30,453 nucleotides of DNA from a virus (IMGVR_UViG_2563366799_000004:1-30453), one strand, 5' to 3'; shown: positions 2,716-28,625, counted from the first letter of the stretch. A program made the numbers and translations. Notes: generated by a model not told the origin, from the letters alone.

Positions 2716-3687
2716 ATGATCCGCCCGTTCATCAAATGGGCAGGGGGTAAAACCCGTGTCCTCCCTGACCTGCTGCCGCATCTTCCTAAAGCCGACTGCC
2801 TGATCGAACCGTTCGTAGGCGGCGCATCGGTATTTCTGGCGACTGAATACCGCCGCTATGTGCTGGCTGATATCAACCCGGATCTTATTAACCTGTATCG
2901 GGAAGTCACCCGTTACCCGGACTTAGTGATCGATGCGGCCCGCGAACTGTTCAACAGCAAGAATAGCCCGCAGGGGTACAACGAAGTCCGAGCCGCGTTC
3001 AATAAGCAGGTATGTACGGTAAAAAGCGGTGGGTTGCGTTATGGCGTCGAAATGGCGCGCATCATGCGTGCTGCTCAATTCCTGTATCTGAACCGCCACG
3101 GTTATAACGGCTTATGCCGTTACAGCCGTAAGACCGGCTTTAACGTGCCGTTTGGCAAGTATAAGAGCGTCTACTTTCCTGAAAATGAAATCCGCCTGTT
3201 TGCCGAAAAGGCCAACGATACAAAGGCAATATTTCTTTGCGCGCCGTTCCAGCGTTCTCTACAGGTCGTCACGGGTGGCGATGTTCTCGTTTACTGCGAT
3301 CCGCCTTACCTGCCTGAAAGCAAAACAGCCGATTTTACCCAATACCACACCGAACCATTCACGGAAGACAACCACCGCCAGTTAGTCCAGGCACTGCTGG
3401 AAGTTAACCGTAAGCATGGCGTGAAGGTTGTCATTTCCAACAGCGACACCGAAGCCACCCGCGCGATTTATCAGCCTTTCAAGATGCACGAAATCAGCGT
3501 GCAACGTTCCGTCAGCACTGACAAAGACAACCACCAGAAGGCCAAAGAAGTGATCGGCGTGCTGCCTGTCTGCGACTGCTGCGGGCGTTACGGCGGCGGT
3601 TGCCCTGATTGTGGCGCCGTGATGGGTGATGCGACTTACAACGCGATGGTTGCGGCAGGCACGTTTGACGATCTGGAGGAGTTTTAA
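2716..3687 (+). CDS. dam: DNA adenine methyltransferase (Dam family) with a Cys-rich C-terminal extension
   Basis: N-terminal SAM motif FIKWAGGK, catalytic DPPY motif, plus an extra C-terminal CDCCGRYGGGCPDCG tail. Confidence 0.85.
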   Translation: MIRPFIKWAGGKTRVLPDLLPHLPKADCLIEPFVGGASVFLATEYRRYVLADINPDLINLYREVTRYPDLVIDAARELFNSKNSPQGYNEVRAAFNKQVCTVKSGGLRYGVEMARIMRAAQFLYLNRHGYNGLCRYSRKTGFNVPFGKYKSVYFPENEIRLFAEKANDTKAIFLCAPFQRSLQVVTGGDVLVYCDPPYLPESKTADFTQYHTEPFTEDNHRQLVQALLEVNRKHGVKVVISNSDTEATRAIYQPFKMHEISVQRSVSTDKDNHQKAKEVIGVLPVCDCCGRYGGGCPDCGAVMGDATYNAMVAAGTFDDLEEF

Positions 3688-3866
3688 TGAATCTTGTAGA
3701 CGCCTGGATCGTTGAAATCATAAGCGTGAGTCGTGGCGAGATTGTGCCGTATTGGTTGGTTGAGGCGAAAGTAACAGCTTATGGAAGGGAGTCAATAACC
3801 ACAATTCTGAAGAAATCAGAAGAGGAAGCCAAAGCCGTTAAAGTAGGGGATGTAGTTCAAATATGA
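3687..3866 (+). CDS. Hypothetical small protein (59 aa), translationally coupled between dam and A
   Basis: ATG overlaps the dam stop (TAATG) and its TGA overlaps the A start (ATATGA); not in the ORF track because it is under 60 aa. Confidence 0.35.
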   Translation: MNLVDAWIVEIISVSRGEIVPYWLVEAKVTAYGRESITTILKKSEEEAKAVKVGDVVQI

Positions 3867-6220
3867 CCACGGCAACCCGTGGCCGTCGCGCCCCTTCTCC
3901 ACCTCCACCGTATCCGGGTAGCACTGACAATGCTATCCCTTACGCTTATGGCGGGAACAAACCATACCAGCCGATTGGCGTTGATGTAGCGCCGGGGCTG
4001 GATGGTTTCGACTATCTCACGCCGGACGGCACGCGTAAGCATATTGCGTTCAGTGAACTGGTAGCGGAGGACGAAAAGCCGGAACGCAGTAAGCTGCTGC
4101 GTCGCCGTCTGGCTTCTCTTCCGCAATATGTCCGCCGCCACTTTGCAGCGAAGCTTGATGCGCTGGATGTGAAAGACCGCAAAGCGGCAGATCACTGGCT
4201 GCTTAACACCTTTGAGCGCCACGTATTAACGCGTATTGATAGCGTGAACAGTGTTTACCAGCCTGATACTGTGATGCCCGGCATTCTGCTGCCAATTCGC
4301 GATCAGCTTTTCCGTATGCTCTGGGCAGGGAAAAAAGAGTTAAAAAGACTGGCTTATACGCTTGCCGATATCTTTACGAGCGAGTTTATACGCGAGTCCG
4401 ATCACCAGTTGGTGCGCACCGGCGATCCTGAGTTCGCGGCGCTTTCTGGCTATGGCCGTATTGCATCGCTGGCAGTGCATCTGAAAACGCCGATCCCCGG
4501 TTGGACAGCTTATTGCAATGAAGAACTTGAAGCGGAGGACGCGTTACGCGCAGTTCTCCGTCTTGAGTCACCGCAGTGGTGGTTAAACCGCCTGCGCCGT
4601 ATCCATGCCCGGTGGCGTGAGCATTTGATGATCGCAGCGGGATACGTCCAGAAAAAATCCTCCCCATACAGTAGCGCCCCGTGCCTTACGGAATGGCTGG
4701 CCCAGAAAAAAGCTAACCGTGAATACCTCAAGGCTATGGAACTGGAAGACCAGGACACGGGCGAGCGCATTTCGCTGATCGATAAAGTCGCCGGCAGTGT
4801 TGCCAATCCGGCCAACCGTCGCCGCGAACTCATGACGAGAATGCGCGGATTTGAAGATCTGGCGAAGCTGGAAGGGCTGGCCGGTGACTTCTACACGCTG
4901 ACAGCGCCTTCCCGCTATCACGCTATGCAGCATAACGGGCGCCGTAATAACAAATACTGTGGCGCGTCGCCGCGTGAGACACAGCAATATCTTTGCAAAG
5001 TCTGGGCGAGAACCCGCGCCGCATGGAAGAGAAAAGGGATCCGCGTCTTTGGTTTTCGCGTGGTCGAACCGCACCACGATGCAACGCCACACTGGCATTT
5101 ACTTCTTTTTATGCGCCCGGAATGCGTCGAGCAGGCGCGCGAAATCTTCCGTAAATATGCCCTGAAAGAAGACGGCAACGAACCGGGAGCGCAGGAAAAC
5201 CGCTTTCAGGTTGTGCCGATCGACGATGCCCACGGCAGCGCAACCGGCTACATAGCGAAATACATTTCGAAGAATATCGACGGCTTCGCGCTGGATGGTG
5301 AGAAAGACGACGAAACCGGGGAAGACCTGAAAGAAATGTCACTCCGCGTTAGCGCGTGGGCATCGCGCTGGGCTATTCGTCAGTTTCAGCAGATCGGCGG
5401 TGCGCCGGTCACGGTATATCGCGAACTTCGCCGCCTGGGCGATCGCGAACTGGTGTTACACCCTGAACTGGAAACCGCCCGGCAGGCCGCTAACGGTGGC
5501 GAATGGGATAACTACGTATTAGCCCAGGGTGGCCCATTGGTTGAGCGCGATAAGCTGCGCATCCGTCTGAATTATGAAACCACTGAAAACGGCAACGCCT
5601 ACGGCGATAACGTCCAGCGAATCACAGGTATTTACTGCCCTATTACGGGCAATGACTCTTTGATCTTCACCCGTACCACTCAATACAAAATCGTGCCGAA
5701 GCGCCAGAGCGCTGACGGTGTGGCCGTTGACGTTGGTTTTTCAGGCGGCAGCGCCGCCCCTCGGAGTTCTGTCAATAACTGTACGCGGGATCCCGCGGCA
5801 GGTGCTGACGGTGTTGAACATGCCGATCACGAAGTGGGCGAGACGGTGAATTTTGATGCGCTTTCACGGCAGGAAAAGCGAGAACTGGCACAGAGGCTAA
5901 GTGACGATGTGCGAAGTAAGCGGAAAAAACGGCCACCGGAACGGGAAGACGGGGCCGGGATATCCGTGAAAGAGCAGCAGATCAGTGAACTGCTGGCGCT
6001 GCGTGGGATTGATGCCAGCGTCGGAATGGTCAGATCGATGATGGCCGGTGCGTCAGTGGCGTGCGGCGATCTTGTTATGACAGTGCAGGATGGGCGGCTG
6101 GTATCGCGCAACCGCGCCGCGTCGGGGCTGGATAAGCTGCCGTCGCAGGTGATGGCGGCGAAGCAACAGACAAATAGTCTTATTAACCGAATGAAAAAAG
6201 CCTTTAACGGTGCGTCATAA
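3863..6220 (+). CDS. A: Replication initiation endonuclease, P2 gpA-like (rolling-circle)
   Basis: 785 aa; contains the conserved active-site tyrosine region GYIAKYISKNIDGF typical of P2 A. Confidence 0.9.
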   Translation: MTTATRGRRAPSPPPPYPGSTDNAIPYAYGGNKPYQPIGVDVAPGLDGFDYLTPDGTRKHIAFSELVAEDEKPERSKLLRRRLASLPQYVRRHFAAKLDALDVKDRKAADHWLLNTFERHVLTRIDSVNSVYQPDTVMPGILLPIRDQLFRMLWAGKKELKRLAYTLADIFTSEFIRESDHQLVRTGDPEFAALSGYGRIASLAVHLKTPIPGWTAYCNEELEAEDALRAVLRLESPQWWLNRLRRIHARWREHLMIAAGYVQKKSSPYSSAPCLTEWLAQKKANREYLKAMELEDQDTGERISLIDKVAGSVANPANRRRELMTRMRGFEDLAKLEGLAGDFYTLTAPSRYHAMQHNGRRNNKYCGASPRETQQYLCKVWARTRAAWKRKGIRVFGFRVVEPHHDATPHWHLLLFMRPECVEQAREIFRKYALKEDGNEPGAQENRFQVVPIDDAHGSATGYIAKYISKNIDGFALDGEKDDETGEDLKEMSLRVSAWASRWAIRQFQQIGGAPVTVYRELRRLGDRELVLHPELETARQAANGGEWDNYVLAQGGPLVERDKLRIRLNYETTENGNAYGDNVQRITGIYCPITGNDSLIFTRTTQYKIVPKRQSADGVAVDVGFSGGSAAPRSSVNNCTRDPAAGADGVEHADHEVGETVNFDALSRQEKRELAQRLSDDVRSKRKKRPPEREDGAGISVKEQQISELLALRGIDASVGMVRSMMAGASVACGDLVMTVQDGRLVSRNRAASGLDKLPSQVMAAKQQTNSLINRMKKAFNGAS

Positions 6221-8417: not shown

Positions 8418-10130
8418 TTAAAACTCCTCCACAAAACTGCCGTTATCGCCGGTCACTTCCGCGCCGATCGGTTCGTTGTAAATGCCCTGCATAGTTGCCC
8501 ATGCCAGATCGCCGTGATTGCTGCCACGGGCCCGATCGGACTGGTAGGTAATAACGCCGCCTGCGGTGACTTTACGCACGGTCATAAACGACTGTGCGAG
8601 ATCCATCATTCCGGCGTCGAACTCAAAGCGCCCGGCACGAATGACCATCAACATTTTGAGCACCATCGACCGCTTAAGAACCGGTGAATAGTTGTATTTA
8701 ACCGCCTGCGGGAAGAACTTGATCACCAGTTGATAAACCGCATCGCCGATCCCTGTGCCGTCGATAGCAATGTGCTGCACGTTGTAGCGGGTGGTGATCT
8801 CTTTAATAAATTTGGCCTGCTCTTCGTACTCCATGCCGCGTAACTGGTGGCGTTCTACCGCGCGGAACTTGCCACCCGGCACGGCTGGCGGGGCCAGCAC
8901 AACCAGCCCGGCGCTGTCGCCTTTGCCGCTGCTGCCGTTGGGGTCATAGCTAACCCAGACAGGGCGATTACCCAGCGGGCGAGGTGCAAACGGGTTCCAG
9001 TCCGGCCACGCGTCCGGCATGTAGCCATCAACGCCGCAGCCCAAAATTGTGTTGTAGTCGAAGGCGCGTTCCCCTGCTTTAACGAAGGTACATCCGTACA
9101 GGTTGGCGTATTCGTCAAGGGAGTTTTCGCTACGGATTTCATCAATATCAACCAGATCGAAACCGAGCTTCATGGCGTCTTCCAGCGTGACTATCTGGCG
9201 CCAGATGTTATCCCCGCATAGCTTGCCGTTTTTCAGTGCCTTATAACTGGTGTCGATATCCACCCGATCGGATCGGCGGCGGCTTTCATTGAACTGATCG
9301 CCAGTCCAGAAGGGATAGGCTTCATGTTCTTCACTGGAAGGCGTCGAAAAGTAGGTGCGGCGCAGTCCTTTTTGTGTCGCCATGCCTGCGGCCACCGAGC
9401 GCAGTTTGATGAAATTACTGATCCAGAAGGCTTCATCAAGGTACAGATCGCCGGTGTAGCTCTGGGCCGTCGCGGCGGAGGTGCCGAGAAAATACAGGAT
9501 CGCACCGTTGCTTAACTCAATGGCATCACCGCCCTTAAGTTCTACTCCTATTTCCCTTGCCAGCTTCTGAATGAACCGCTTGAACTGGAACGCTTGGGCG
9601 CGGCTGGCTGACAGGAATATCTGATTATTTCCGGTTTCCAGCGCACGCAACAGCGCTTCGCGGGCAAAGTACCAGGTGGCACCAATCTGGCGCGATTTGA
9701 GGATAAAGCGGTTACGCCGGTTCCACTGTTTGAACCAGCGTTTTTGATGCTCGTATAGCGAATCAAAGATCAGGGCGCGAAGCTGAGTTATCTGTTCTTC
9801 GGTGAAATGGTTTTTCGGGGTCTTCGCCTTCTTCTCTTTCTCCTGGTCGCGTCGCTCATGCCGTTCAAAGCGGTCAAGCTGGCGCGCCAGCAGGTCAATT
9901 TCTTTAAAGTCCTTCGGGGTTTTGTCGTCCTTTTCCACTAGGCGCAGGTAACGAACGTGCGTGCGATCCTGCACCCGCTGCATGGGGGTAGCTTTATCCC
10001 ATTCATAGCGGCGGCGCCAACTGTAGATCGTGTTAATGCTCACCCCGATTTCCTTAGAAATCTGAGTGATGCTAAACGCCTGCCAGTAGAGGCTTTTGGC
10101 TTTTGTGCTGAGGTCTTCGGCTGTATTCAT
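8418..10130 (-). CDS. P: Terminase ATPase (large) subunit, P2 gpP-like
   Basis: 570 aa; region ILKSRQIGATWYFAREALL (Walker A-like) and strong similarity to P2 P throughout. Confidence 0.9.
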   Translation of the reverse strand: MNTAEDLSTKAKSLYWQAFSITQISKEIGVSINTIYSWRRRYEWDKATPMQRVQDRTHVRYLRLVEKDDKTPKDFKEIDLLARQLDRFERHERRDQEKEKKAKTPKNHFTEEQITQLRALIFDSLYEHQKRWFKQWNRRNRFILKSRQIGATWYFAREALLRALETGNNQIFLSASRAQAFQFKRFIQKLAREIGVELKGGDAIELSNGAILYFLGTSAATAQSYTGDLYLDEAFWISNFIKLRSVAAGMATQKGLRRTYFSTPSSEEHEAYPFWTGDQFNESRRRSDRVDIDTSYKALKNGKLCGDNIWRQIVTLEDAMKLGFDLVDIDEIRSENSLDEYANLYGCTFVKAGERAFDYNTILGCGVDGYMPDAWPDWNPFAPRPLGNRPVWVSYDPNGSSGKGDSAGLVVLAPPAVPGGKFRAVERHQLRGMEYEEQAKFIKEITTRYNVQHIAIDGTGIGDAVYQLVIKFFPQAVKYNYSPVLKRSMVLKMLMVIRAGRFEFDAGMMDLAQSFMTVRKVTAGGVITYQSDRARGSNHGDLAWATMQGIYNEPIGAEVTGDNGSFVEEF

Positions 10131-10143
10131 GGCAACAGGCTAT

Positions 10144-10231
10144 CGCGCTCGCGCGCGCAACAATATCGCCGCTGGTTGTCGCCTGAGTCCGACAAAGTGA
10201 AGGCTTTGCGCCTTCCGGCCGCAAAGGGAAT
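10144..10231. promoter_or_regulatory. Late promoter region between P and O: TTGT-N12-ACAA dyad (10176..10195), (GC)n tract (10150..10158), second dyad CTTTGCG-N9-CGCAAAG (10204..10226)
   Basis: The TGT-N12-ACA dyad is the known Ogr/Delta-dependent late promoter element of P2-like phages; it sits between divergent P and O. Confidence 0.55.
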
Positions 10232-10283
10232 GATTGGGGCACTGGTTAATATCAATCGCTTACCAACCCGGAGCTTTGTCACC

Positions 10284-11129
10284 ATGCCAATGACAAATTT
10301 TTTCCGCGCCGCAGTAGAGGGCGCAACCTGTGACGGTCGAGTACTGGAACGTCAGCACATCACCGAAATGGCCGAACAGTACGATCCCCAGGTATATGGC
10401 GCCCGCGTCAATCTGGAGCACATTTTAGGCTGGTCGCCGACAAGCGATTTCCGCGCGTATGGTGACGTGGTTGAAGCCAAAGCAGAAGAGATTGCCGAGG
10501 GCCCGCTAAAGGGCAAACTGGCGCTTCTGGTGAAGGTGGACGCCACGGACGAACTGGTAGAACTGAAAGGCAAACGCCAGAAAATCTACCATAGCATTGA
10601 GGTGCATCCGTCCTTTGCCGACACCGGAAAAGCCTACCTTATGGGGCTGGCCTGTACCGATAACCCGGCGAGCCTGGGCACCGAAATGATGAAGTTTTGC
10701 ACCCAGAACGCCAGCGCCAACCCACTGGCTGCGCGTCACTACGCACCTGAATGCTTCTTCACTGAAACCCTGGAATCATCCCTCGAATTTGCGCAGGAAG
10801 AGCCGCCAGCGTCCGACACCGGGAAGAATTTCTTTTCCCGTATCAAGGAAATGCTGACCGGAACCCGCCAGCACTTCGATCGTGAAAATGGCGATATCCG
10901 CCAGGCGGTTGAACTGGTAGCGGAAAGTCAGGGTGAATTGCTGGACAAGATGGAAAAACTGAGCGCAGGGCAGCTTAAGAACAAGCAGACCGCCGAAGCG
11001 GTGGATAAGTTGCGCTCTGAGTTCGACGAGATGAAAGCGCAGCTTTCTACCCAGGACGCCAGTAAATACCGCCGCCCGGAAGCGACCGGCGCAACTGAAA
11101 AATCTAACGCCCAGCTTGCTGACTGCTGA
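10284..11129 (+). CDS. O: Capsid scaffolding protein, P2 gpO-like
   Basis: Start set at ATG 10284 (GGAG 10 nt upstream); MPMTNFFRAAVEGATCDGRV matches the P2 O N-terminus; the track start at 9957 would overlap P. Confidence 0.85.
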   Translation: MPMTNFFRAAVEGATCDGRVLERQHITEMAEQYDPQVYGARVNLEHILGWSPTSDFRAYGDVVEAKAEEIAEGPLKGKLALLVKVDATDELVELKGKRQKIYHSIEVHPSFADTGKAYLMGLACTDNPASLGTEMMKFCTQNASANPLAARHYAPECFFTETLESSLEFAQEEPPASDTGKNFFSRIKEMLTGTRQHFDRENGDIRQAVELVAESQGELLDKMEKLSAGQLKNKQTAEAVDKLRSEFDEMKAQLSTQDASKYRRPEATGATEKSNAQLADC

Positions 11130-16513: not shown

Positions 16514-16560
16514 TTGTCACCAACCCGCCACAAGGGCGCCGCGTTGTTTGCGCGCGCGCG
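16514..16560 (+). promoter_or_regulatory. Late promoter element upstream of V: TTGT-N12-ACAA followed by GCGTTGTTTG(CG)5
   Basis: Perfect TTGT-N12-ACAA dyad (16514..16533) and alternating CG tract (16551..16560), ~110 bp upstream of V. Confidence 0.6.
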
Positions 16561-16670
16561 ACTCCTGATACTGACTGCATAACCCAAAAGCCGAAACGGT
16601 CGTAAAGCCTGCTACCGGGTGGAAACGACGCCGGACAGCGTAACCGGCACCACGGGAAACAGTCAGCACT

Positions 16671-17300
16671 ATGAATTTAAACGAACTCTATCGCCTTATC
16701 TGCAATCTCGCCCGCATTGGCACCGTGCTGGAAGTGGATACGGAAAAGTATCTTGCACGCGTCGAAACCGGCGAGAACAAAACCGACTGGATCCGCTGGG
16801 CAGTGCCGCGCGCCGGTGAAGCCGTGACGTGGTGGGCGCCGACAGTGGGCGAACAGGTTTATATTTTGTGCCCCTGCGGTGAGATGGAGACGGCATTCAT
16901 TGCCGGAAGCCTTTACAGCGAAGACGCACCGCCGCCAGATGCTGGCGCTACCACCTGCGTGATCCTGCACCCGGATGGCGCCCGTATTTCATATGACCCG
17001 GAGGCCAGCGCGCTGGTTGTCAGCGGGGTAAAAACGGCAAGCGTCACCGCGTCGGAATCCATTACCGCCACCGTGCCGGTGGTAACGGTCAAGGCAGATA
17101 CGCGCGTTACCCTGGACACGCCGGAAGTGGTCTGCACCAACAAGCTGATCACCGCCACGCTGGAAGTGCAAAAGGGCGGGGAAATGAAGGGCAATATTAC
17201 CCATTCAGGCGGATCGCTTTCGTCTAATGGTGTCGTTGTCCATTCTCACAAACATAGCGGCGTCCAGTACGGTGGTAGTAATACAGGTGGCCCGGTATGA
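16671..17300 (+). CDS. V: Baseplate assembly / spike protein V
   Basis: 209 aa; gpV-like N-terminal domain; first gene of the V-W-J-I-H-G block. Confidence 0.85.
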   Translation: MNLNELYRLICNLARIGTVLEVDTEKYLARVETGENKTDWIRWAVPRAGEAVTWWAPTVGEQVYILCPCGEMETAFIAGSLYSEDAPPPDAGATTCVILHPDGARISYDPEASALVVSGVKTASVTASESITATVPVVTVKADTRVTLDTPEVVCTNKLITATLEVQKGGEMKGNITHSGGSLSSNGVVVHSHKHSGVQYGGSNTGGPV

Positions 17301-21385: not shown

Positions 21386-21400
21386 ATTACGGAAGACGAA

Positions 21401-21423
21401 GCGGGCAATGGCCCGCTTTTCTT
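21401..21423 (+). terminator. Rho-independent terminator between G and U
   Basis: GCGGGC-caat-GGCCCGC hairpin followed by TTTTCTT on the plus strand; abuts the U stop codon. Confidence 0.6.
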
Positions 21424-21880: not shown

Positions 21881-24826
21881 TTAGACGTGATCGGTCAGTT
21901 GGGAGCGCTTGCGCCGGTCGGCCTGTTGCTTCGCTAACGCAAGTTCTTCGCGCACGCGCCTGATAATGGTTTCTTCATCCAGTTTCTGGCCGCTAAAGTC
22001 GAAGTTAAGGTTATATACATCGCCACCCGGAGCAGGCATCAGCGCAGCGACGGAAGCCGCAGACGGAGACGCCGAAACAGGCATCCGTGCGGCGGGCTTC
22101 TCAACCTGCCAAGGCGTAACGGAAGCGATCAGCGATCCGGCCTGCTGCGTCACCCAATCGGTAAGGGATGGTAGCTGGCGCTGCGCCTGCTTAAGCGGTT
22201 CCGAATATCCGCCACGGATCGGGATATAGGGCTGCTTATTCTTGAAGACAATTTCGCCGGGGCCGTCTTTCTTCTCCGTGGTATTGGTGGCGATCTTGTC
22301 CAGGCTGTTGCTCATCTTCGGCACGATGTTGGCCGGGCCTTTGAGCGAGTTAATTAAGCTTTCCTGCTTTTTCTGCTGGTCAATGGCCTGCTGTTGCTTC
22401 TGGTTGGTTTTCTTCTGCTGATCGTCTTTCGGCGACCAGTTCCAACCCTTTTTAACCATTTTCTTTTGCTGCGGATCCCACTCCCAGACAACAGGGTCTT
22501 TGTGCATACTTTCCGCAGCTTGCTGCGCTGCTTTTGTTGCGTCGGGGATGGCGCCGAGTTTCTCAAGTATCCATCCAATCCCGTTAGCGACGGCTTGAAT
22601 AGGTAGCGTCAGCGCGCTAATTGCGGCCCCTACAACCTTGCCGAACGTTTCCCCGGCACTGGTGCAGGATGCCAGCGCTTCACTGGAAAACTGGATCGGT
22701 TCCAGCAGTTTGGTAAACCATTCCCAGACCCCACTGATCGCGTTGCCGATACTGTCAAAAATCGGGGCCAGTGGTGCAAATACGGCGTTAAATGCCTGCG
22801 TGATTGGTTGAAGGCCAGTCATCAGGCCGGTAAAGAAGCCGCTGAAAAACGCCTGTATGGGTTGCCAGAATTTAATGACGGCCACTGCTGCCGCAGCAAA
22901 GAGCGCAATCAGCCCCCAGACGGGCGCAGAAATACCAGCCAGTAGAGTAATAAGCGGGCCGAATACCATGCGACCGGCGCTTAATAATGCCTGCATAGGC
23001 GAGCCAGCAAGCCACTGGAACGCACCACCAAGGCGCATTACTCCGCCAGTCAGCCGCGCTATTCCTCCTTCCCCGGCCAGCGTGGTGAAGCTGAGGCGAA
23101 CAAGTGCCATCGGGCCCAGCACTGCGCCGATGGACAGCATCAGGCCACCCACGACAACCAGCAACGCGCCTATGGCTGCGGTGACTTTCATGATTGAACC
23201 AACCAGCGCCGGGTTTGCCTCAACCCAACGCCGGACGCTGCCAACCACCTTACTGACGGTAAGCATGATATCCATCAGCGGTTCGCGGAGCGTTTCCCCT
23301 GCTGAACTGAATGCGTTAACCGCGCCGGTTTTGGTCAGTTGCCACTGAGCAGAAAGGGAGTCTTTATTGATATCGGATTCCCGATTCATGGAACCTTTAG
23401 CGGCAGCACCCTGCGTCAGTTCGATCTGGCGCCGAAGTTCGGGCAGGTTGTTCGCAAGTTTCTGTGCATCATCCCCGAACTCTTTACCGAAAATCTGGGT
23501 AAGGTTGGCTACCTGCTTATCTGGTGCAAGTTTTTTGGACGCTTCCAGCACTGAAATGATCGTGCCCATCGCGTCCACTGACATGCTTTTCTGGACTTTC
23601 TCAGCATTGACGCCGATCTCATCCAGAGCACCCAAAAATTTATCGCTTTGTACTGTGGCGATCGACAGTTCACGCACCATTGCATTGGTGGCGCTGGCTG
23701 CAACTTCGGCAGGTGATCCAAGCGTCAGAAAGGTGGAGCCCAGCGCGGCGGCTTGCTTGTAATCCAGTTGGCTGGCAAGCCCGCCAACGCGCTGGAGCAC
23801 GTCGATAATATCGGAGCCTTTCGACTTCGCGTTATCGTCCAGGTAGTTTATGGCGTCGCCCAACTGTTCAATATTCTGGGTAGGGATTTTATACAGCCCG
23901 GCAATCTTACCGAGACTTTCAGAAAGCTGATCGGCGGGCAGTTCAAAGGCTACCGAAGCCTTTGCCGCCATGCTGGCAAAAGCCAGCAGATCGGCTTTTT
24001 GCTTTTGCCACGGATCATTGCTGTTTGCGACGCCCATACGCGCGCCACCTTCGACCAGTGCGGCATAGTCAACAGCACCGTTTGCCATTGGCAGCTTTTC
24101 GCTGGCATCCATGATCGCCCGCTGCATTTCTTCATATTGCGGGGTGCGGTTGCCGCTGTCGTCACGCAAGCCGTTTACCTGTTTGGCTACGCCCTTCATT
24201 GCGTCTTCAAGGCTGCTGTAGGATTTAACCGCAGCGGCGACAGGTGCTAGGGTTGCCGCCCCTACTGCGGCGGTTTTCATCCCCCCGCTCATCATCTTTT
24301 CGCCGGTTTCTTTGGCGCGGCTGTAACGGGCCTGCGCCTGGTTAACAGCGTCAAGCCGTCGCTGCTGTTCGGCAAGCTGGCGGTTGTATTGCGCGGTGCG
24401 CTGGTTGATCTGTTCCGTCGCCCGGCTGGCGCTGCTGATCGCAATGCCTTCGCTGTAGAAGCTGGCCCGCAACTGGTTAAGCTGTGTCTGCTCGCCTTTC
24501 TGCTGCTGGGTTAACTGGCGAATGGCTGCACGTTGCTGATTGAGGGCGGCAACCTGTTCGGCGCTGCGCTGGCGTAACGGGCCATAGGCCGCCGCCATTT
24601 GCCGGGCCTGTTCTTTCGCCTGGGCCAGTTGTTCGGTGGTTTTTTTATTGGCTGCGGTGAGGCGGTCAAAGCTGGTTGCCTGACGCTCAAGCCCTTTAAT
24701 GCTGGTTTTAGTCTGGTTGATTTGAGACGCCAACGCGGCGGCACTCTGGCGCGCCGCGTTGACAGGGCGGGACATATTATTCAGGGCGCTGAATGCCACC
24801 CTGATATTTAAATTGCGGTCTGCCAT
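21881..24826 (-). CDS. T: Tail tape measure protein T
   Basis: 981 aa; Ala/Gln-rich coiled-coil N-terminal part, Gly/Ala-rich hydrophobic central segments; follows E/E'. Confidence 0.9.
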   Translation of the reverse strand: MADRNLNIRVAFSALNNMSRPVNAARQSAAALASQINQTKTSIKGLERQATSFDRLTAANKKTTEQLAQAKEQARQMAAAYGPLRQRSAEQVAALNQQRAAIRQLTQQQKGEQTQLNQLRASFYSEGIAISSASRATEQINQRTAQYNRQLAEQQRRLDAVNQAQARYSRAKETGEKMMSGGMKTAAVGAATLAPVAAAVKSYSSLEDAMKGVAKQVNGLRDDSGNRTPQYEEMQRAIMDASEKLPMANGAVDYAALVEGGARMGVANSNDPWQKQKADLLAFASMAAKASVAFELPADQLSESLGKIAGLYKIPTQNIEQLGDAINYLDDNAKSKGSDIIDVLQRVGGLASQLDYKQAAALGSTFLTLGSPAEVAASATNAMVRELSIATVQSDKFLGALDEIGVNAEKVQKSMSVDAMGTIISVLEASKKLAPDKQVANLTQIFGKEFGDDAQKLANNLPELRRQIELTQGAAAKGSMNRESDINKDSLSAQWQLTKTGAVNAFSSAGETLREPLMDIMLTVSKVVGSVRRWVEANPALVGSIMKVTAAIGALLVVVGGLMLSIGAVLGPMALVRLSFTTLAGEGGIARLTGGVMRLGGAFQWLAGSPMQALLSAGRMVFGPLITLLAGISAPVWGLIALFAAAAVAVIKFWQPIQAFFSGFFTGLMTGLQPITQAFNAVFAPLAPIFDSIGNAISGVWEWFTKLLEPIQFSSEALASCTSAGETFGKVVGAAISALTLPIQAVANGIGWILEKLGAIPDATKAAQQAAESMHKDPVVWEWDPQQKKMVKKGWNWSPKDDQQKKTNQKQQQAIDQQKKQESLINSLKGPANIVPKMSNSLDKIATNTTEKKDGPGEIVFKNKQPYIPIRGGYSEPLKQAQRQLPSLTDWVTQQAGSLIASVTPWQVEKPAARMPVSASPSAASVAALMPAPGGDVYNLNFDFSGQKLDEETIIRRVREELALAKQQADRRKRSQLTDHV

Positions 24827-25287
24827 TTAGTGATCTCCACCACTGCGCGCAGCCGCCTGATCACGCCATAACAGTATTTCCTGTACCGTCATGGCGTCCA
24901 TCTCTACCGGCCGCCAGTGGAATATGACGGCGATATCTGCCATCAGGTCTTCTATGCGTTCGCAGGGGCATCGGATGATTCGTTGCCCGTATCCGTCGCG
25001 GTCAGATCCGAAGAGGGTTGCAAAAAATCAACCACCGCGTTGGCTAGCTGGCAAAAATCCCAGGTATCCATACGGGCAATCTCATCGGCGGTTAGTGCCG
25101 GAGCGGTAACGCGGGGCAGCAGAATAACCAGCGCGTCATAGTTGGAAGTCAGCACGTCATAGGCTTTTAAGCCGCGCAGTGATCCAGCCTGTTTAAGCAC
25201 GGAAGTGATCGCCACTTCGGTGATTTTGGTCTTACCGCGCGTAATAGGGGCGGTAAGAATAACGGTGTTTTCTTTGGTCTTGCTCAT
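24827..25287 (-). CDS. E: Tail assembly chaperone E and its -1 frameshift product E+E' (slippery site T TTT TTG at plus coords 25021..25027)
   Basis: Zero-frame E = 24952..25287 (111 aa). Minus strand reads GAT TTT TTG at 25029..25021; hand translation of the -1 frame after it gives an open extension (...IAVIFHWRPVEMDAMTVQEILLWRDQAAARSGGDH) ending at a TAA that abuts the T start (TAAATG). Confidence 0.75.
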
Positions 25288-25829: not shown

Positions 25830-27023
25830 TTAGTTATTCACTGCGCTGGAAAACGTAGCGAAATATTCGTCGGTGAACTCCTGTACCAGGCTGAGATTTT
25901 CCAGCGGTGGAACAGGGGTGTAGTTGTACTTAATGGTCAGTTGACCATTGCGCAGGGTTTCCGAGGTATTCGGTTCCGGGTCATACCAGCAGTGGGCGCC
26001 CAGCAGCTTGCCAGCCGTCACATATGAGGTCAGCTTCTTATTGATGCCGTCCACAATGTCCTTAACCAGCGACGGGGTAAGCGGTTTATCAACATAGGCG
26101 AAATGGGCTTCGGCGACGGTATCCGCAACGATCTGCGCGGTTCGGGTATAGCTTTCGAAGATATACGTTTCCGCGTCGCAGGTACGCGATCCCCAGATGC
26201 GGTAGCCGTCCTGCTTGATCAGCGTGGTAACGCCTGCTGCGTTCAGTTCGTCGGCGTCGGTATCGGTGCCCTGCAACGTGAAATAGATATCCCGATCCAT
26301 CCCCAGCACGTTATTAACGGGCACGTTGGAAATGGTTTTATGCCAGCCCTGCGTTGCGTCGATTTTGGCTCGCATCCCAACAGCATGGGCACCCACGGGC
26401 ACGGTGGCATTAGCCCCGGCGTTGGTGTCGTAGCAGATGAAATTAGGCCAGATAACCATCATTTCACGCTGGGAGAATTGCTCGCGGTATTCCTTCACTT
26501 CGGCGATTGTGTTGCAACCGTTCGCTGCCACGTAAGCAAACGCGCGCAGCTTTTCGGCAATGACGCCGAGTTGTGCGGCTACCGCTTCCGTATCAAGCCC
26601 TGGAACAGCCAGTACACGCGGGCGCACACCTACGCGCATTTCGGCAGACAGCAGCGCGTACATGCCGGTAAAGCGCCCGTTTGCATCGGTGCCGCCAATA
26701 ACCAGTTGATCCTGGGTCTGTGCGGTGCCGCCTTCTGGCGGTTCGATATTTGCAGCATCAGCAACGCGGATCACAATGGTTTGCGGGCTGGTCTGGTCTG
26801 AAATCGCTTTCAGGGTGGTAAACAGGGTGCCGGTTTTACCTGCCTTGCCCAGCATGTTAGCCACGCGGGTAATCAGTACAGGGGTATCCAGCGGGAACGC
26901 TGTTTCGTCCGCATCATCAGCGGTGCAGACAACGCCGATCACCGCCGAATCAATGTCGGTGATCATCGTGCTAAGGTCGGTGGTTTCCGTGACGGTTACA
27001 CCGTGATGGTAGTTAGTGGCCAT
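25830..27023 (-). CDS. FI: Contractile tail sheath protein FI
   Basis: 397 aa; motifs LRAFAYVAANGC and YTPVPPLENL match P2 FI; SD GAGG before the ATG at 27023. Confidence 0.9.
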   Translation of the reverse strand: MATNYHHGVTVTETTDLSTMITDIDSAVIGVVCTADDADETAFPLDTPVLITRVANMLGKAGKTGTLFTTLKAISDQTSPQTIVIRVADAANIEPPEGGTAQTQDQLVIGGTDANGRFTGMYALLSAEMRVGVRPRVLAVPGLDTEAVAAQLGVIAEKLRAFAYVAANGCNTIAEVKEYREQFSQREMMVIWPNFICYDTNAGANATVPVGAHAVGMRAKIDATQGWHKTISNVPVNNVLGMDRDIYFTLQGTDTDADELNAAGVTTLIKQDGYRIWGSRTCDAETYIFESYTRTAQIVADTVAEAHFAYVDKPLTPSLVKDIVDGINKKLTSYVTAGKLLGAHCWYDPEPNTSETLRNGQLTIKYNYTPVPPLENLSLVQEFTDEYFATFSSAVNN

Positions 27024-27094
27024 GTATTTGCCTCGCCAGTTTAATGACTGCGAATATCATTGCGGCAATGGCGGGCCGATGCGATGGATAAGGG

Positions 27095-27143
27095 TTGTCA
27101 GCAACCTGCAACAATGACGGGGCGTTGTTCATGCGCGCGCGCG
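27095..27143. promoter_or_regulatory. Late promoter element centred between divergent FI and D: TTGT-N12-ACAA followed by GCGTTGTTCAT(GC)5
   Basis: Perfect dyad 27095..27114 centred at 27104.5; intergenic midpoint 27102; alternating GC tract 27133..27143 on the D-proximal side. Confidence 0.6.
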
Positions 27144-27180
27144 TGGCGACGATGTACCCCATCATGATGAAGGGGTTGAT

Positions 27181-28299
27181 ATGGACACGACAGAAAACCG
27201 ATATTCGCCGCGCCCGGCGTTCAGTATTGAGATTGAAGGTAAGCAGCTTACGGCGCTGGATAACCGGCTGATCTCCCTTTCCCTGACAGATAACCGGGGC
27301 TTTGAAGCGGACACGCTGGATCTGACTCTGGATGATGCAGACGGGCAGGTAGCCTTACCATCACGCGGCGCAAAGATATCGGTGGCGCTGGGCTGGGATA
27401 ATGATCCATTGGTTTTTAAGGGAGTGTATACGGTTGACGAGATCGGACACTCTGGCCCGCCTGACCAGCTAACGATCAGTGCCAGAAGCGCAGATTTCCG
27501 CGATACCTTTAACGTGAAGAGGGAATATAGCTGGCACGATATTACCGTGGGGGATGTGGTTGCCAGCATTGCCAGCCGTTACGATCTGCGTGCGGGCGTC
27601 AGCGAAGAACTGGCGAAGATTGAGATAGATCACGCCGATCAGACGAGTGAATCAGATATCAGCTTCTTAACGCGCATGGCCGAAATGCTGGGCGCGGTGG
27701 CAACCATTAAAAACGGTATGCTTCTGTTTATCACGCCGGGCAAGGGAGTAACGCAGAGCGGCAAGCCGCTGCCGGTGATCGAGATAGTCCGGTCAAGCGG
27801 TGATAAACATCGGTTTAACGTAGCTGACCGCGACGCGTACACGGGCGTAACTGCATACTGGCTTGATCTCAACTTTGGCAAGAAACCATCCACTACCGTG
27901 AAGAAAACCACCCGCAGGCGACGAACCAGCCAGGCCAAAAAGAAAGAACCCGCATCAAGCAAAAAAGAAGGGGATTATCTGGCCGGGGCCGAAGGCAACG
28001 TTTTTGTTATCCGTAAAACCTTCAAGACGGAAAAGGCGGCGAAGCGGGCCGCTGCGGCTAAGTGGCGGGAGTTGCAGCGTGGAGCGGCGACGTTCAGCAT
28101 CACCCTGGCGCGTGGCCGCGCGGATTTGTACCCGGAACAGCCCGCCAGCGTCTACGGCTTTAAGTCCACGATCGACAGTGGGAACTGGACGATAACGCGG
28201 TGCGTTCACGATATTGGCGGGGGAGGGTTTACCACATCGCTGGAACTGGAAGTAAAAATCGACGACTGGACAGCGGAGAGTGACGATTCAACGTCTTAA
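27181..28299 (+). CDS. D: Tail protein D (late control gene D family)
   Basis: 372 aa; P2 gpD-like N- and C-terminal regions with a basic low-complexity insert (KKTTRRRRTSQAKKKEP); SD AAGGGG. Confidence 0.85.
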   Translation: MDTTENRYSPRPAFSIEIEGKQLTALDNRLISLSLTDNRGFEADTLDLTLDDADGQVALPSRGAKISVALGWDNDPLVFKGVYTVDEIGHSGPPDQLTISARSADFRDTFNVKREYSWHDITVGDVVASIASRYDLRAGVSEELAKIEIDHADQTSESDISFLTRMAEMLGAVATIKNGMLLFITPGKGVTQSGKPLPVIEIVRSSGDKHRFNVADRDAYTGVTAYWLDLNFGKKPSTTVKKTTRRRRTSQAKKKEPASSKKEGDYLAGAEGNVFVIRKTFKTEKAAKRAAAAKWRELQRGAATFSITLARGRADLYPEQPASVYGFKSTIDSGNWTITRCVHDIGGGGFTTSLELEVKIDDWTAESDDSTS

Positions 28300-28347: not shown

Positions 28348-28590
28348 ATGGCAATGCGCTGTCCTCGCTGCCGTGCAATAGCAAAAACCAGAACCAGCGT
28401 TGAGCTGAGTTTGCTTGTACGGCGCAGCTATCACCAGTGTCAAAATATGTTGTGCGGGTACTGTTTCACCAGCATGACGGAAATAGACGGTTCACTAAAT
28501 CAGACCCAGCCAGCGCCCGGCGCGATGGTGCCACAAGAAGCTTTTCCACGAAGTCACCACGGCGAAGATCAGTTATCGCTGGCATTATAA
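28348..28590 (+). CDS. ogr: Late gene transcriptional activator, Ogr/Delta zinc-finger family
   Basis: 80 aa; CPRC...HQCQNMLCGYC zinc-finger pattern as in P2 Ogr; located after D. Confidence 0.8.
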   Translation: MAMRCPRCRAIAKTRTSVELSLLVRRSYHQCQNMLCGYCFTSMTEIDGSLNQTQPAPGAMVPQEAFPRSHHGEDQLSLAL

Positions 28591-28592
28591 AA

Positions 28593-28625
28593 GCGGCCCC
28601 TAAATGGGGCCGTTATTTATTTCAT
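28593..28625. terminator. Bidirectional rho-independent terminator shared by ogr (+) and the convergent gene 28617..29264 (-)
   Basis: GCGGCCCC-taaat-GGGGCCGT hairpin; T-rich on the plus side (TATTTATTT) and on the minus side (TTTTATAAT). Confidence 0.6.

Follow-up and report, generated by a model that had tools for sequence, protein, structure and literature searches.

The question raised by this locus is how 153 bp of intergenic DNA (10131-10283) can serve the two divergent genes P and O, and what each of the two inverted repeats lying there contributes. The region belongs to a stretch of 30,453 nucleotides (IMGVR_UViG_2563366799_000004:1-30453), called the window here, the whole of which is, on the grounds of its sequence, a P2-like prophage. 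Over 1 kb surrounding the P/O region, identity to the Salmonella phages SEN4 and SEN5 (Peduoviridae, Senquatrovirus) was 95.8%. The following genes of the window are needed below:

8418-10130, minus strand: gene P, terminase large subunit, 570 aa (Pfam Terminase_6N, Terminase_6C and Terminase_5; SEN5 annotation)
10284-11129, plus strand: gene O, capsid scaffold, 281 aa from the ATG at 10284 (Pfam Phage_GPO, E = 1.9e-96)
16671-17300, plus strand: gene V, baseplate spike (Pfam)
25830-27023, minus strand: gene FI, sheath (Pfam)
27181-28299, plus strand: gene D (Pfam)
28348-28590, plus strand: Ogr/Delta-family zinc-finger gene (PF04606 Ogr_Delta, E = 1.5e-13, 50.9 bits against a cutoff of 26.3)

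The P protein has a conserved N-terminal helix-turn-helix from about residue 10. For O we favour the ATG at 10284, which makes the gene 18 codons shorter than in the SEN5 RefSeq annotation; this start is preferred because of the homology to P2 gpO (MAKKVSKFF vs MPMTNFF) and the GGAG at 10270.

The inverted repeat nearer the middle of the region has the form of a binding site for an Ogr-type activator:

10176-10195, no strand assigned: first dyad TTGTCGCCTGAGTCCGACAA, TTGTCG-N8-CGACAA, with perfect 6-bp arms (sequence reading)

It contains a perfect match to TGT-N12-ACA at 10177-10194, the only such site in the P/O intergenic region. TGT-N12-ACA alone was not enriched in the window (5 observed, 5.98 expected), which leaves the extended 20-mer TTGT-N12-ACAA as the only informative statistic. 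Three copies of the 20-mer were present against 0.44 expected, and none of 100 shuffled sequences contained at least three. All three copies are intergenic and lie upstream of late operons, one in the P/O region, one before V and one between FI and D. The product of 28348-28590 is the presumed ligand of the first dyad.

The Ogr protein of P2 recruits RNA polymerase through the C-terminal domain of the alpha subunit, and Christie and Calendar are said to have described, in 1983 and 1985, a single Ogr/Delta activator site shared by the divergent P2 late promoters pP and pO. The GenBank record of P2 (NC_001895) carries one feature, 'activator binding site; pO, pP promoters', at 3057-3087, with the start of the P operon at 3016 on the minus strand and that of the O operon at 3127 on the plus strand. 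The centre of the P2 20-mer (3062-3081) is 55.5 bp from each of these mapped starts. From P2 pP and pO a rule was derived in which the 20-mer is followed by 33 nt, a hexamer, 6 nt and then +1, that is, centre + 55.5. It returns both P2 starts (3016 and 3127) exactly and is off by 1 nt for P2 V and by 1-3 nt for P2 F; its tolerance is about ±1-3 nt, and all transcription starts given for the present phage are predictions transferred from P2 in this way. Applied to the window, the rule met -10-like hexamers together with a purine at +1 for O, P, V and F, and a C/A for D.

The centre of the first dyad, at 10185.5, is 55.5 bp from the predicted start of P and equally far from that of O. It is also 46 bp from the centres of both candidate -10 elements (TAGCCT at 10142..10137 and AATGAT at 10229-10234). 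The first dyad is thus predicted to be one activator site serving both P and O, as annotated for P2 pP/pO. The first-pass annotation had considered a shared bidirectional element as one option, and a single predicted site equidistant from both core promoters, as in the P2 annotation, bears this out; a comparison with the P2 P/O region, which it had suggested, gave the same single-site layout and the same -10 distances. The correspondence goes further. Both phages have a single dyad between divergent P and O with its centre 55.5 bp from the starts (predicted ones in our case), the hexamer TAGCCT as the -10 of pP, a GC-rich pP spacer (cgcggggcgcg in P2), no consensus -35/-10 pair, and a gene for an Ogr-family activator in the same genome. 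In contrast to the perfect dyad found here (TTGT...ACAA), that of P2 is imperfect (TTGT...CCAT). A shared site has also been inferred from sequence for Stenotrophomonas phage Smp131, where PP' and PO' occupy the same TGT-N12-ACA coordinates on opposite strands (4398-4381 and 4381-4398), with citation of the TGT-N12-ACA consensus, although that report contains no geometry, leader analysis or core-promoter asymmetry (PMC3931495).

On the O side these core promoter elements are predicted, and the second inverted repeat overlaps them:

10206-10211, plus strand: predicted -35 of pO, TTGCGC, in the left arm of the second dyad (TTG in relatives, 17 bp from the -10)
10229-10234, plus strand: predicted -10 of pO, AATGAT, exactly 33 nt after the 20-mer
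10241, plus strand: predicted start of pO, an A (from the centre + 55.5 rule, which gives the P2 start 3127)
10204-10226, no strand assigned: second dyad CTTTGCG-N9-CGCAAAG, 7/7 perfect, corresponding to -37 to -15 of predicted pO

From the predicted start the O leader measures 43 nt and contains the Shine-Dalgarno sequence GGAG at 10270-10273. Relatives for comparison of the P/O region were gathered from GTDB genomes and IMG/VR. Their O sides are built alike, with the 20-mer, some 10 nt ending in 'aaggyt', a TTG at -35, a spacer of 17 bp, a -10 of the form GAnnAT or AATGAT, and 6 nt. Among 23 distinct O-side sequences, 20 have the TTG at -35, invariably separated from the -10 by 17 bp, and nearly all relatives have an A at the predicted +1 of pO. 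P2 pO differs in lacking a TTG at -35 (TGGCGG).

Some minor features of the O leader may be recorded here. A perfect 7-bp inverted repeat, TTTGTCA-N9-TGACAAA, occupies 10275-10297 and places the O ATG (10284) in the predicted hairpin loop; it occurs in the closest relatives only. In the close relative L021 the leader carries a tandem duplication, 'ttaatatcaatcg', at approximately +10 to +35 of pO. In the SEN5 RefSeq record (L001) the scaffold gene is given as 3092-3991, equivalent to window 10230-11129. Its start is an ATG (10230) within the predicted -10 hexamer of pO and upstream of the predicted transcription start.

The second dyad had been described in the first-pass annotation; like the oriented motif with the first dyad, it is present where that annotation placed it, in its case at 10204..10226. 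Its left arm coincides with the conserved -35 block, while its right arm falls in the spacer and is not conserved in distant relatives. We conclude that this repeat is part of the predicted pO core promoter, made up of the -35 element and the GC-rich spacer.

It seems unlikely that the second dyad is instead a separate operator for a lineage-specific dimeric regulator, or a cruciform, which would repress or time the O operon independently of Ogr. A perfect 7-bp palindrome extending over -37 to -15 does occupy the classic position for a repressor, and when it is folded as DNA the window clade gives z values of about -2 (L003: -1.43). The more distant L058 has a similar stem, TTGCGCC...GGCGGCAA, around another loop (z = -1.6), and L007, L008 and L065 fold at z <= -1.5. 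Over 19 lineages, however, the mean z of the DNA fold is only -0.5, many values being close to 0. Nor does the repeat recur, since other matches in the window (at 3 mismatches) were at chance level only. When the 153-bp intergenic region was shuffled, 12% of the copies contained a perfect 7-bp inverted repeat; the RNA fold has a z of only -0.96. Most close relatives have an imperfect dyad, TGCAAAG replacing CGCAAAG as the right arm at 20 of 27 loci, and the left arm is already accounted for by the conserved 'aaggyt-TTG' -35 block.

The two functions originally proposed for the repeat, an O-specific site (for Ogr) or an RNA hairpin in the O leader, fared worse. Its RNA would fold at -11.9 kcal/mol, and in the C-to-T variant common among relatives the O-sense strand can still pair G with U, the P-sense strand being left with a C-A mismatch, but both functions are hardly credible, as the conserved O geometry has transcription begin at 10241 and leaves the repeat 15 nt upstream, 31 of 200 shuffles fold as well, an Rfam search of 9900-10500 (E <= 1) gave no match, TGT-N12-ACA is absent from the repeat, there is no second window copy, and the right arm is unconserved in distant relatives.

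A superficial likeness exists to Psid of satellite phage P4, for which Julien and Calendar reportedly found, in 1995, a second Delta site near -18; in both cases a second element lies over the core promoter, downstream of a site at -55. The second site of Psid is of the TGT-N12-ACA type, whereas the second dyad has neither those half-sites nor their spacing. Two further roles were rejected. As an activator site for P, the second dyad (centre 10215) would call for a P start near 10160 and lies 60 bp from the start derived from the GATATT motif discussed below, a misfit, besides having no TGT/ACA half-sites and no conservation. As an intrinsic terminator or insulator it has no T-run on either strand, and a terminator scan of the region was empty.

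The P side departs from this arrangement:

10137-10142, minus strand: predicted -10 of pP, TAGCCT, the same hexamer as in P2 pP (TAGCCT/TAATCT conserved in relatives)
10128-10130, minus strand: start codon ATG of P; A10130 is also the predicted pP transcription start (P2 geometry)

In P2 the TAGCCT of pP ends 7 nt before the mapped start 3016, and A10130 likewise lies 7 nt after TAGCCT. The TAG of this hexamer is at the same time an in-frame stop, 12 nt upstream of the P ATG, so that the ATG at 10130 is the sole possible start of P. In CGCGATAGCCTGTTGCC, which precedes this ATG, a Shine-Dalgarno sequence was looked for and none was found, there being no purine-rich stretch. Our analysis therefore suggests that the mRNA of P (terminase/portal) is probably leaderless or has a leader of at most 2 nt. 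The first-pass annotation had spoken of a very short leader; the conserved geometry agrees and predicts a start on the A of the ATG, with a leader of zero. Since the ATG of several relatives lies at +2 or +3 of the predicted start, P may instead have a leader of 1-2 nt.

Comparison among relatives is consistent with this prediction. The P ATG begins 0-2 nt downstream of the rule start (at +1, +2 or +3) in every lineage with a P identity of at least 61%. This set consists of the window/SEN4 group, L036/L063, L065, L066/L113, Photorhabdus, Xenorhabdus, Morganella, L067 and L111, from Salmonella, Citrobacter, Photorhabdus, Xenorhabdus, Morganella and IMG/VR contigs. The spacing of 6-7 nt between -10 and ATG is kept in these approximately nine lineages (61-99% P identity), which are phylogenetically related, so that lineage counts overstate their independence, while the -10 itself varies (TAGCCT, TAATCT, GAAAGT, TAGTCT). 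The P start codon is ATG, not GUG or UUG, in every lineage of the clade. Outgroup P leaders, by contrast, measure 20-28 nt (P2 23 nt, the L068 group 20 nt, L105/L106 28 nt) and possess a Shine-Dalgarno sequence, GAGG in P2 and GGAGG or GGGGAG in the others; P2 pP thus has a 23-nt leader where the present phage has its ATG at the predicted +1.

As a separate observation, the P match in a Photorhabdus luminescens prophage extends over about 2.5 kb (L005 1501-4012, L041 1201-3712) instead of 1.7 kb, as if an intein, an intron or a homing element of about 800 bp had been inserted in the large-terminase gene.

The P core promoter contains no TTG at -35. A TTGTTG is present at 15 bp, instead of 17 bp, from TAGCCT, and this spacing makes the P core promoter a poor match to sigma-70 promoters. 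A scan of the P/O region for constitutive sigma-70 consensus promoters gave no site. Further upstream in the P direction, window positions 10162-10167 (minus strand) read GATATT, corresponding to -38 to -33 of pP, an AT-rich patch amid GC-rich DNA. It could be a docking patch for the alpha C-terminal domain or an alternative -10.

If GATATT (10167..10162) were the -10, P would not be leaderless; transcription would start near 10155 and give a GC-rich leader of about 25 nt lacking a Shine-Dalgarno sequence, with the Ogr dyad near -30. The motif is closer to TATAAT than TAGCCT is, and it is conserved in four lineages (the window group, L036/L063, L065 and Photorhabdus). We nevertheless regard such an upstream start as quite unlikely. 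A dyad near -30 would occlude the promoter, against the evidence of all four mapped P2 late promoters. GATATT is missing from Xenorhabdus, Morganella, L066/L113, L067 and L111, where the distance from dyad to ATG is the same. A leader of this kind would fold into a stable (CG)n hairpin and have no Shine-Dalgarno sequence immediately ahead of the AUG, and the sigma-70 consensus scan was empty at this place. A start on or next to the P ATG remains the preferred reading.

Between the first dyad and the -10 of pP lie two further elements:

10159-10163, minus strand: TTGTT, -33 to -29 of pP
10144-10158, minus strand: (CG)n spacer box GCGCGCGCGAGCGCG, -28 to -14 of pP

Read in the P sense, the dyad is followed by TTGTT (10163..10159) and then by GCGCGCGCG-A-GCGCG (10158..10144). 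The same order of dyad, TTGTT and (GC)n occurs at V and D, in agreement with the first-pass annotation, which had also placed the end of the tract about 18 nt before the P ATG; the distance is 19 nt for the uninterrupted run and 13 nt for the whole tract. TTGTT follows the dyad after 12 nt at P as opposed to 10 nt at V and D. At the latter two promoters TTGTTn occupies -35 to -30, and at P it is shifted by 2 nt. D sides, and within the window clade V sides too, keep TTGTT at -35; on P sides it is not conserved. The sequence CGCGCGCG is found in four places in the window, three of which adjoin the copies of the 20-mer.

The distribution of the (CG)n box among relatives follows the individual promoter faces. 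In the segment from -35 to -13, CGCGCG is present in 15/20 distinct P-side and 15/24 distinct D-side sequences, as against 0/23 on the O side and 3/30 on the F side. The box is conserved in the P promoters of all relatives, and in those of outgroups ('gatCGCGCGCGGGG-TAATCT') and in P2 pP ('cgcggggcgcg') as well. The earlier claim that the motif of the P/O region is oriented toward P therefore holds for the TTGTT(CG)n sequence, which is on the P side; it fails for the dyad as a P-only site, since the symmetric dyad is placed equally well for O. The orientation given by TTGTT(CG)n is a property of the core promoter and not of the activator site. Faces with (CG)n precede genes for low-copy products (terminase and portal, baseplate, D), and faces free of it precede scaffold and capsid or sheath and tube, from which we infer that the box attenuates promoter strength.

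The other two copies of the 20-mer in the window are these:

16514-16533, plus strand: sister site of the V promoter, followed by TTGTTT (16544-16549), (CG)n and the -10 GATACT (16567-16572)
27095-27114, no strand assigned: FI/D sister site TTGTCAGCAACCTGCAACAA, perfect and shared, between FI (minus strand) and D (plus strand)

The FI/D region (27024-27180) has the layout of the P/O region, with -10-like hexamers exactly 33 nt from the site on both sides. Toward D the site is followed by TTGTTC (27125-27130), (CG)n and GACGAT (27148-27153), and transcription is predicted to begin near 27160; toward F it is followed by AATGAT (27061..27056), and A27049 is the predicted start. This phage differs from P2 in that D is separate from the F operon and possesses a promoter of its own. 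At V the predicted start is A16579, which gives a leader of 92 nt (16579-16670). A small hypothetical ORF is annotated in SEN5 opposite the stretch of the V leader (9265-9417).

A late gene of this family that starts on its own first base is known from P2, in which the V coding sequence opens with the annotated transcription start, 10308 (NC_001895). Like the predicted pP of the window, P2 pV is an Ogr-dependent late promoter with its start on the A of the AUG and the dyad centre 55.5-56.5 bp upstream. The two cases differ in the gene, which is the V spike and not the terminase P, and in that the start was mapped in P2 and is predicted here. V itself is leaderless in P2, whereas a leader of 92 nt is predicted for it in the window. 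In L251 and L287 (positions ~525-605) the V ATG is at +1 of the rule start. The D ATG is at +1/+2 in a different clade of P2-like contigs, L198-L219 with the exception of L199-L201, L203, L206, L208 and L217 ('CAAAAT tacccc Atgcaa...', ~535-605). Judging by these V and D cases, leaderless late genes seem to have arisen repeatedly in the phage family. The AUG may fall on +1 in different genes according to clade, in V (P2 and others), in P (SEN4-like phages, Photorhabdus, Xenorhabdus, Morganella) and in D (another clade).

Taken as a whole, 10131-10283 can with good probability be read as a divergent late promoter pair of the P2 type built on one symmetric site, with P probably leaderless and the second dyad forming part of the pO core. 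The Ogr-family protein encoded at 28348-28590 would bind TTGT-N12-ACAA at 10176-10195 and recruit the sigma-70 RNA polymerase of the host in both directions. On the O face the polymerase would meet TTGCGC, a GC-rich spacer of 17 bp and AATGAT, start at A10241 and produce the 43-nt leader with GGAG. On the P face it would meet the conserved (CG)n spacer box and the weak -10 TAGCCT, and start at A10130, the A of the P AUG. One site would in this way feed two unequal faces, a strong one leading to scaffold, capsid and other genes and a weak one leading to terminase and portal, both of them products in catalytic amounts. The weak face would be attenuated twice, in transcription by the (CG)n spacer and in translation by the absence of a leader.

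The (CG)n box may mark the low-output face, namely P, D and V in this clade, being absent from the high-output O and F, and it could act through spacer rigidity, Z-DNA or sensitivity to supercoiling. Only tentatively can this be extended to the late promoters of the Peduoviridae in general, where the (CG)n box and recurrent loss of the leader would be two conserved devices, hitherto undescribed, that set very different outputs from one symmetric site. Were both devices true, leaderless translation would be a regular and evolvable means of tuning expression across a phage family, the large terminase included.

The region is ordinary in itself and for the most part confirms known biology, since it corresponds, in a phage of the SEN4/SEN5 type, to the textbook P2 pP/pO pair. 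What goes beyond the knowledge of P2 is the leaderless terminase message, which has probably not been reported. The searchable literature, outside which the primary P2 promoter papers lay, contained no paper joining leaderless mRNA with Ogr or P2-like phages, and the paper on SEN4/5 has nothing on promoters or ogr. The prediction of a leaderless terminase/portal mRNA concerns a sizeable clade of enterobacterial P2-like prophages. It bears on the annotation of these genes, in that gene callers which need a ribosome-binding site may shift the start, and on how their expression level is interpreted. The contrast between a (CG)n face and a face with a TTG at -35 offers a testable handle on how catalytic and structural proteins are made in unequal amounts from one site.

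Inverted repeats with perfect 7-bp arms and loops of 3-15 nt numbered 43 over the whole window against 28.8 ± 6.9 in dinucleotide shuffles. Clusters with the look of terminators or regulatory hairpins are situated at 2331-2367, 21399-21418, 23944-23999, 24732-24760, 25230-25258 and 28594-28612.
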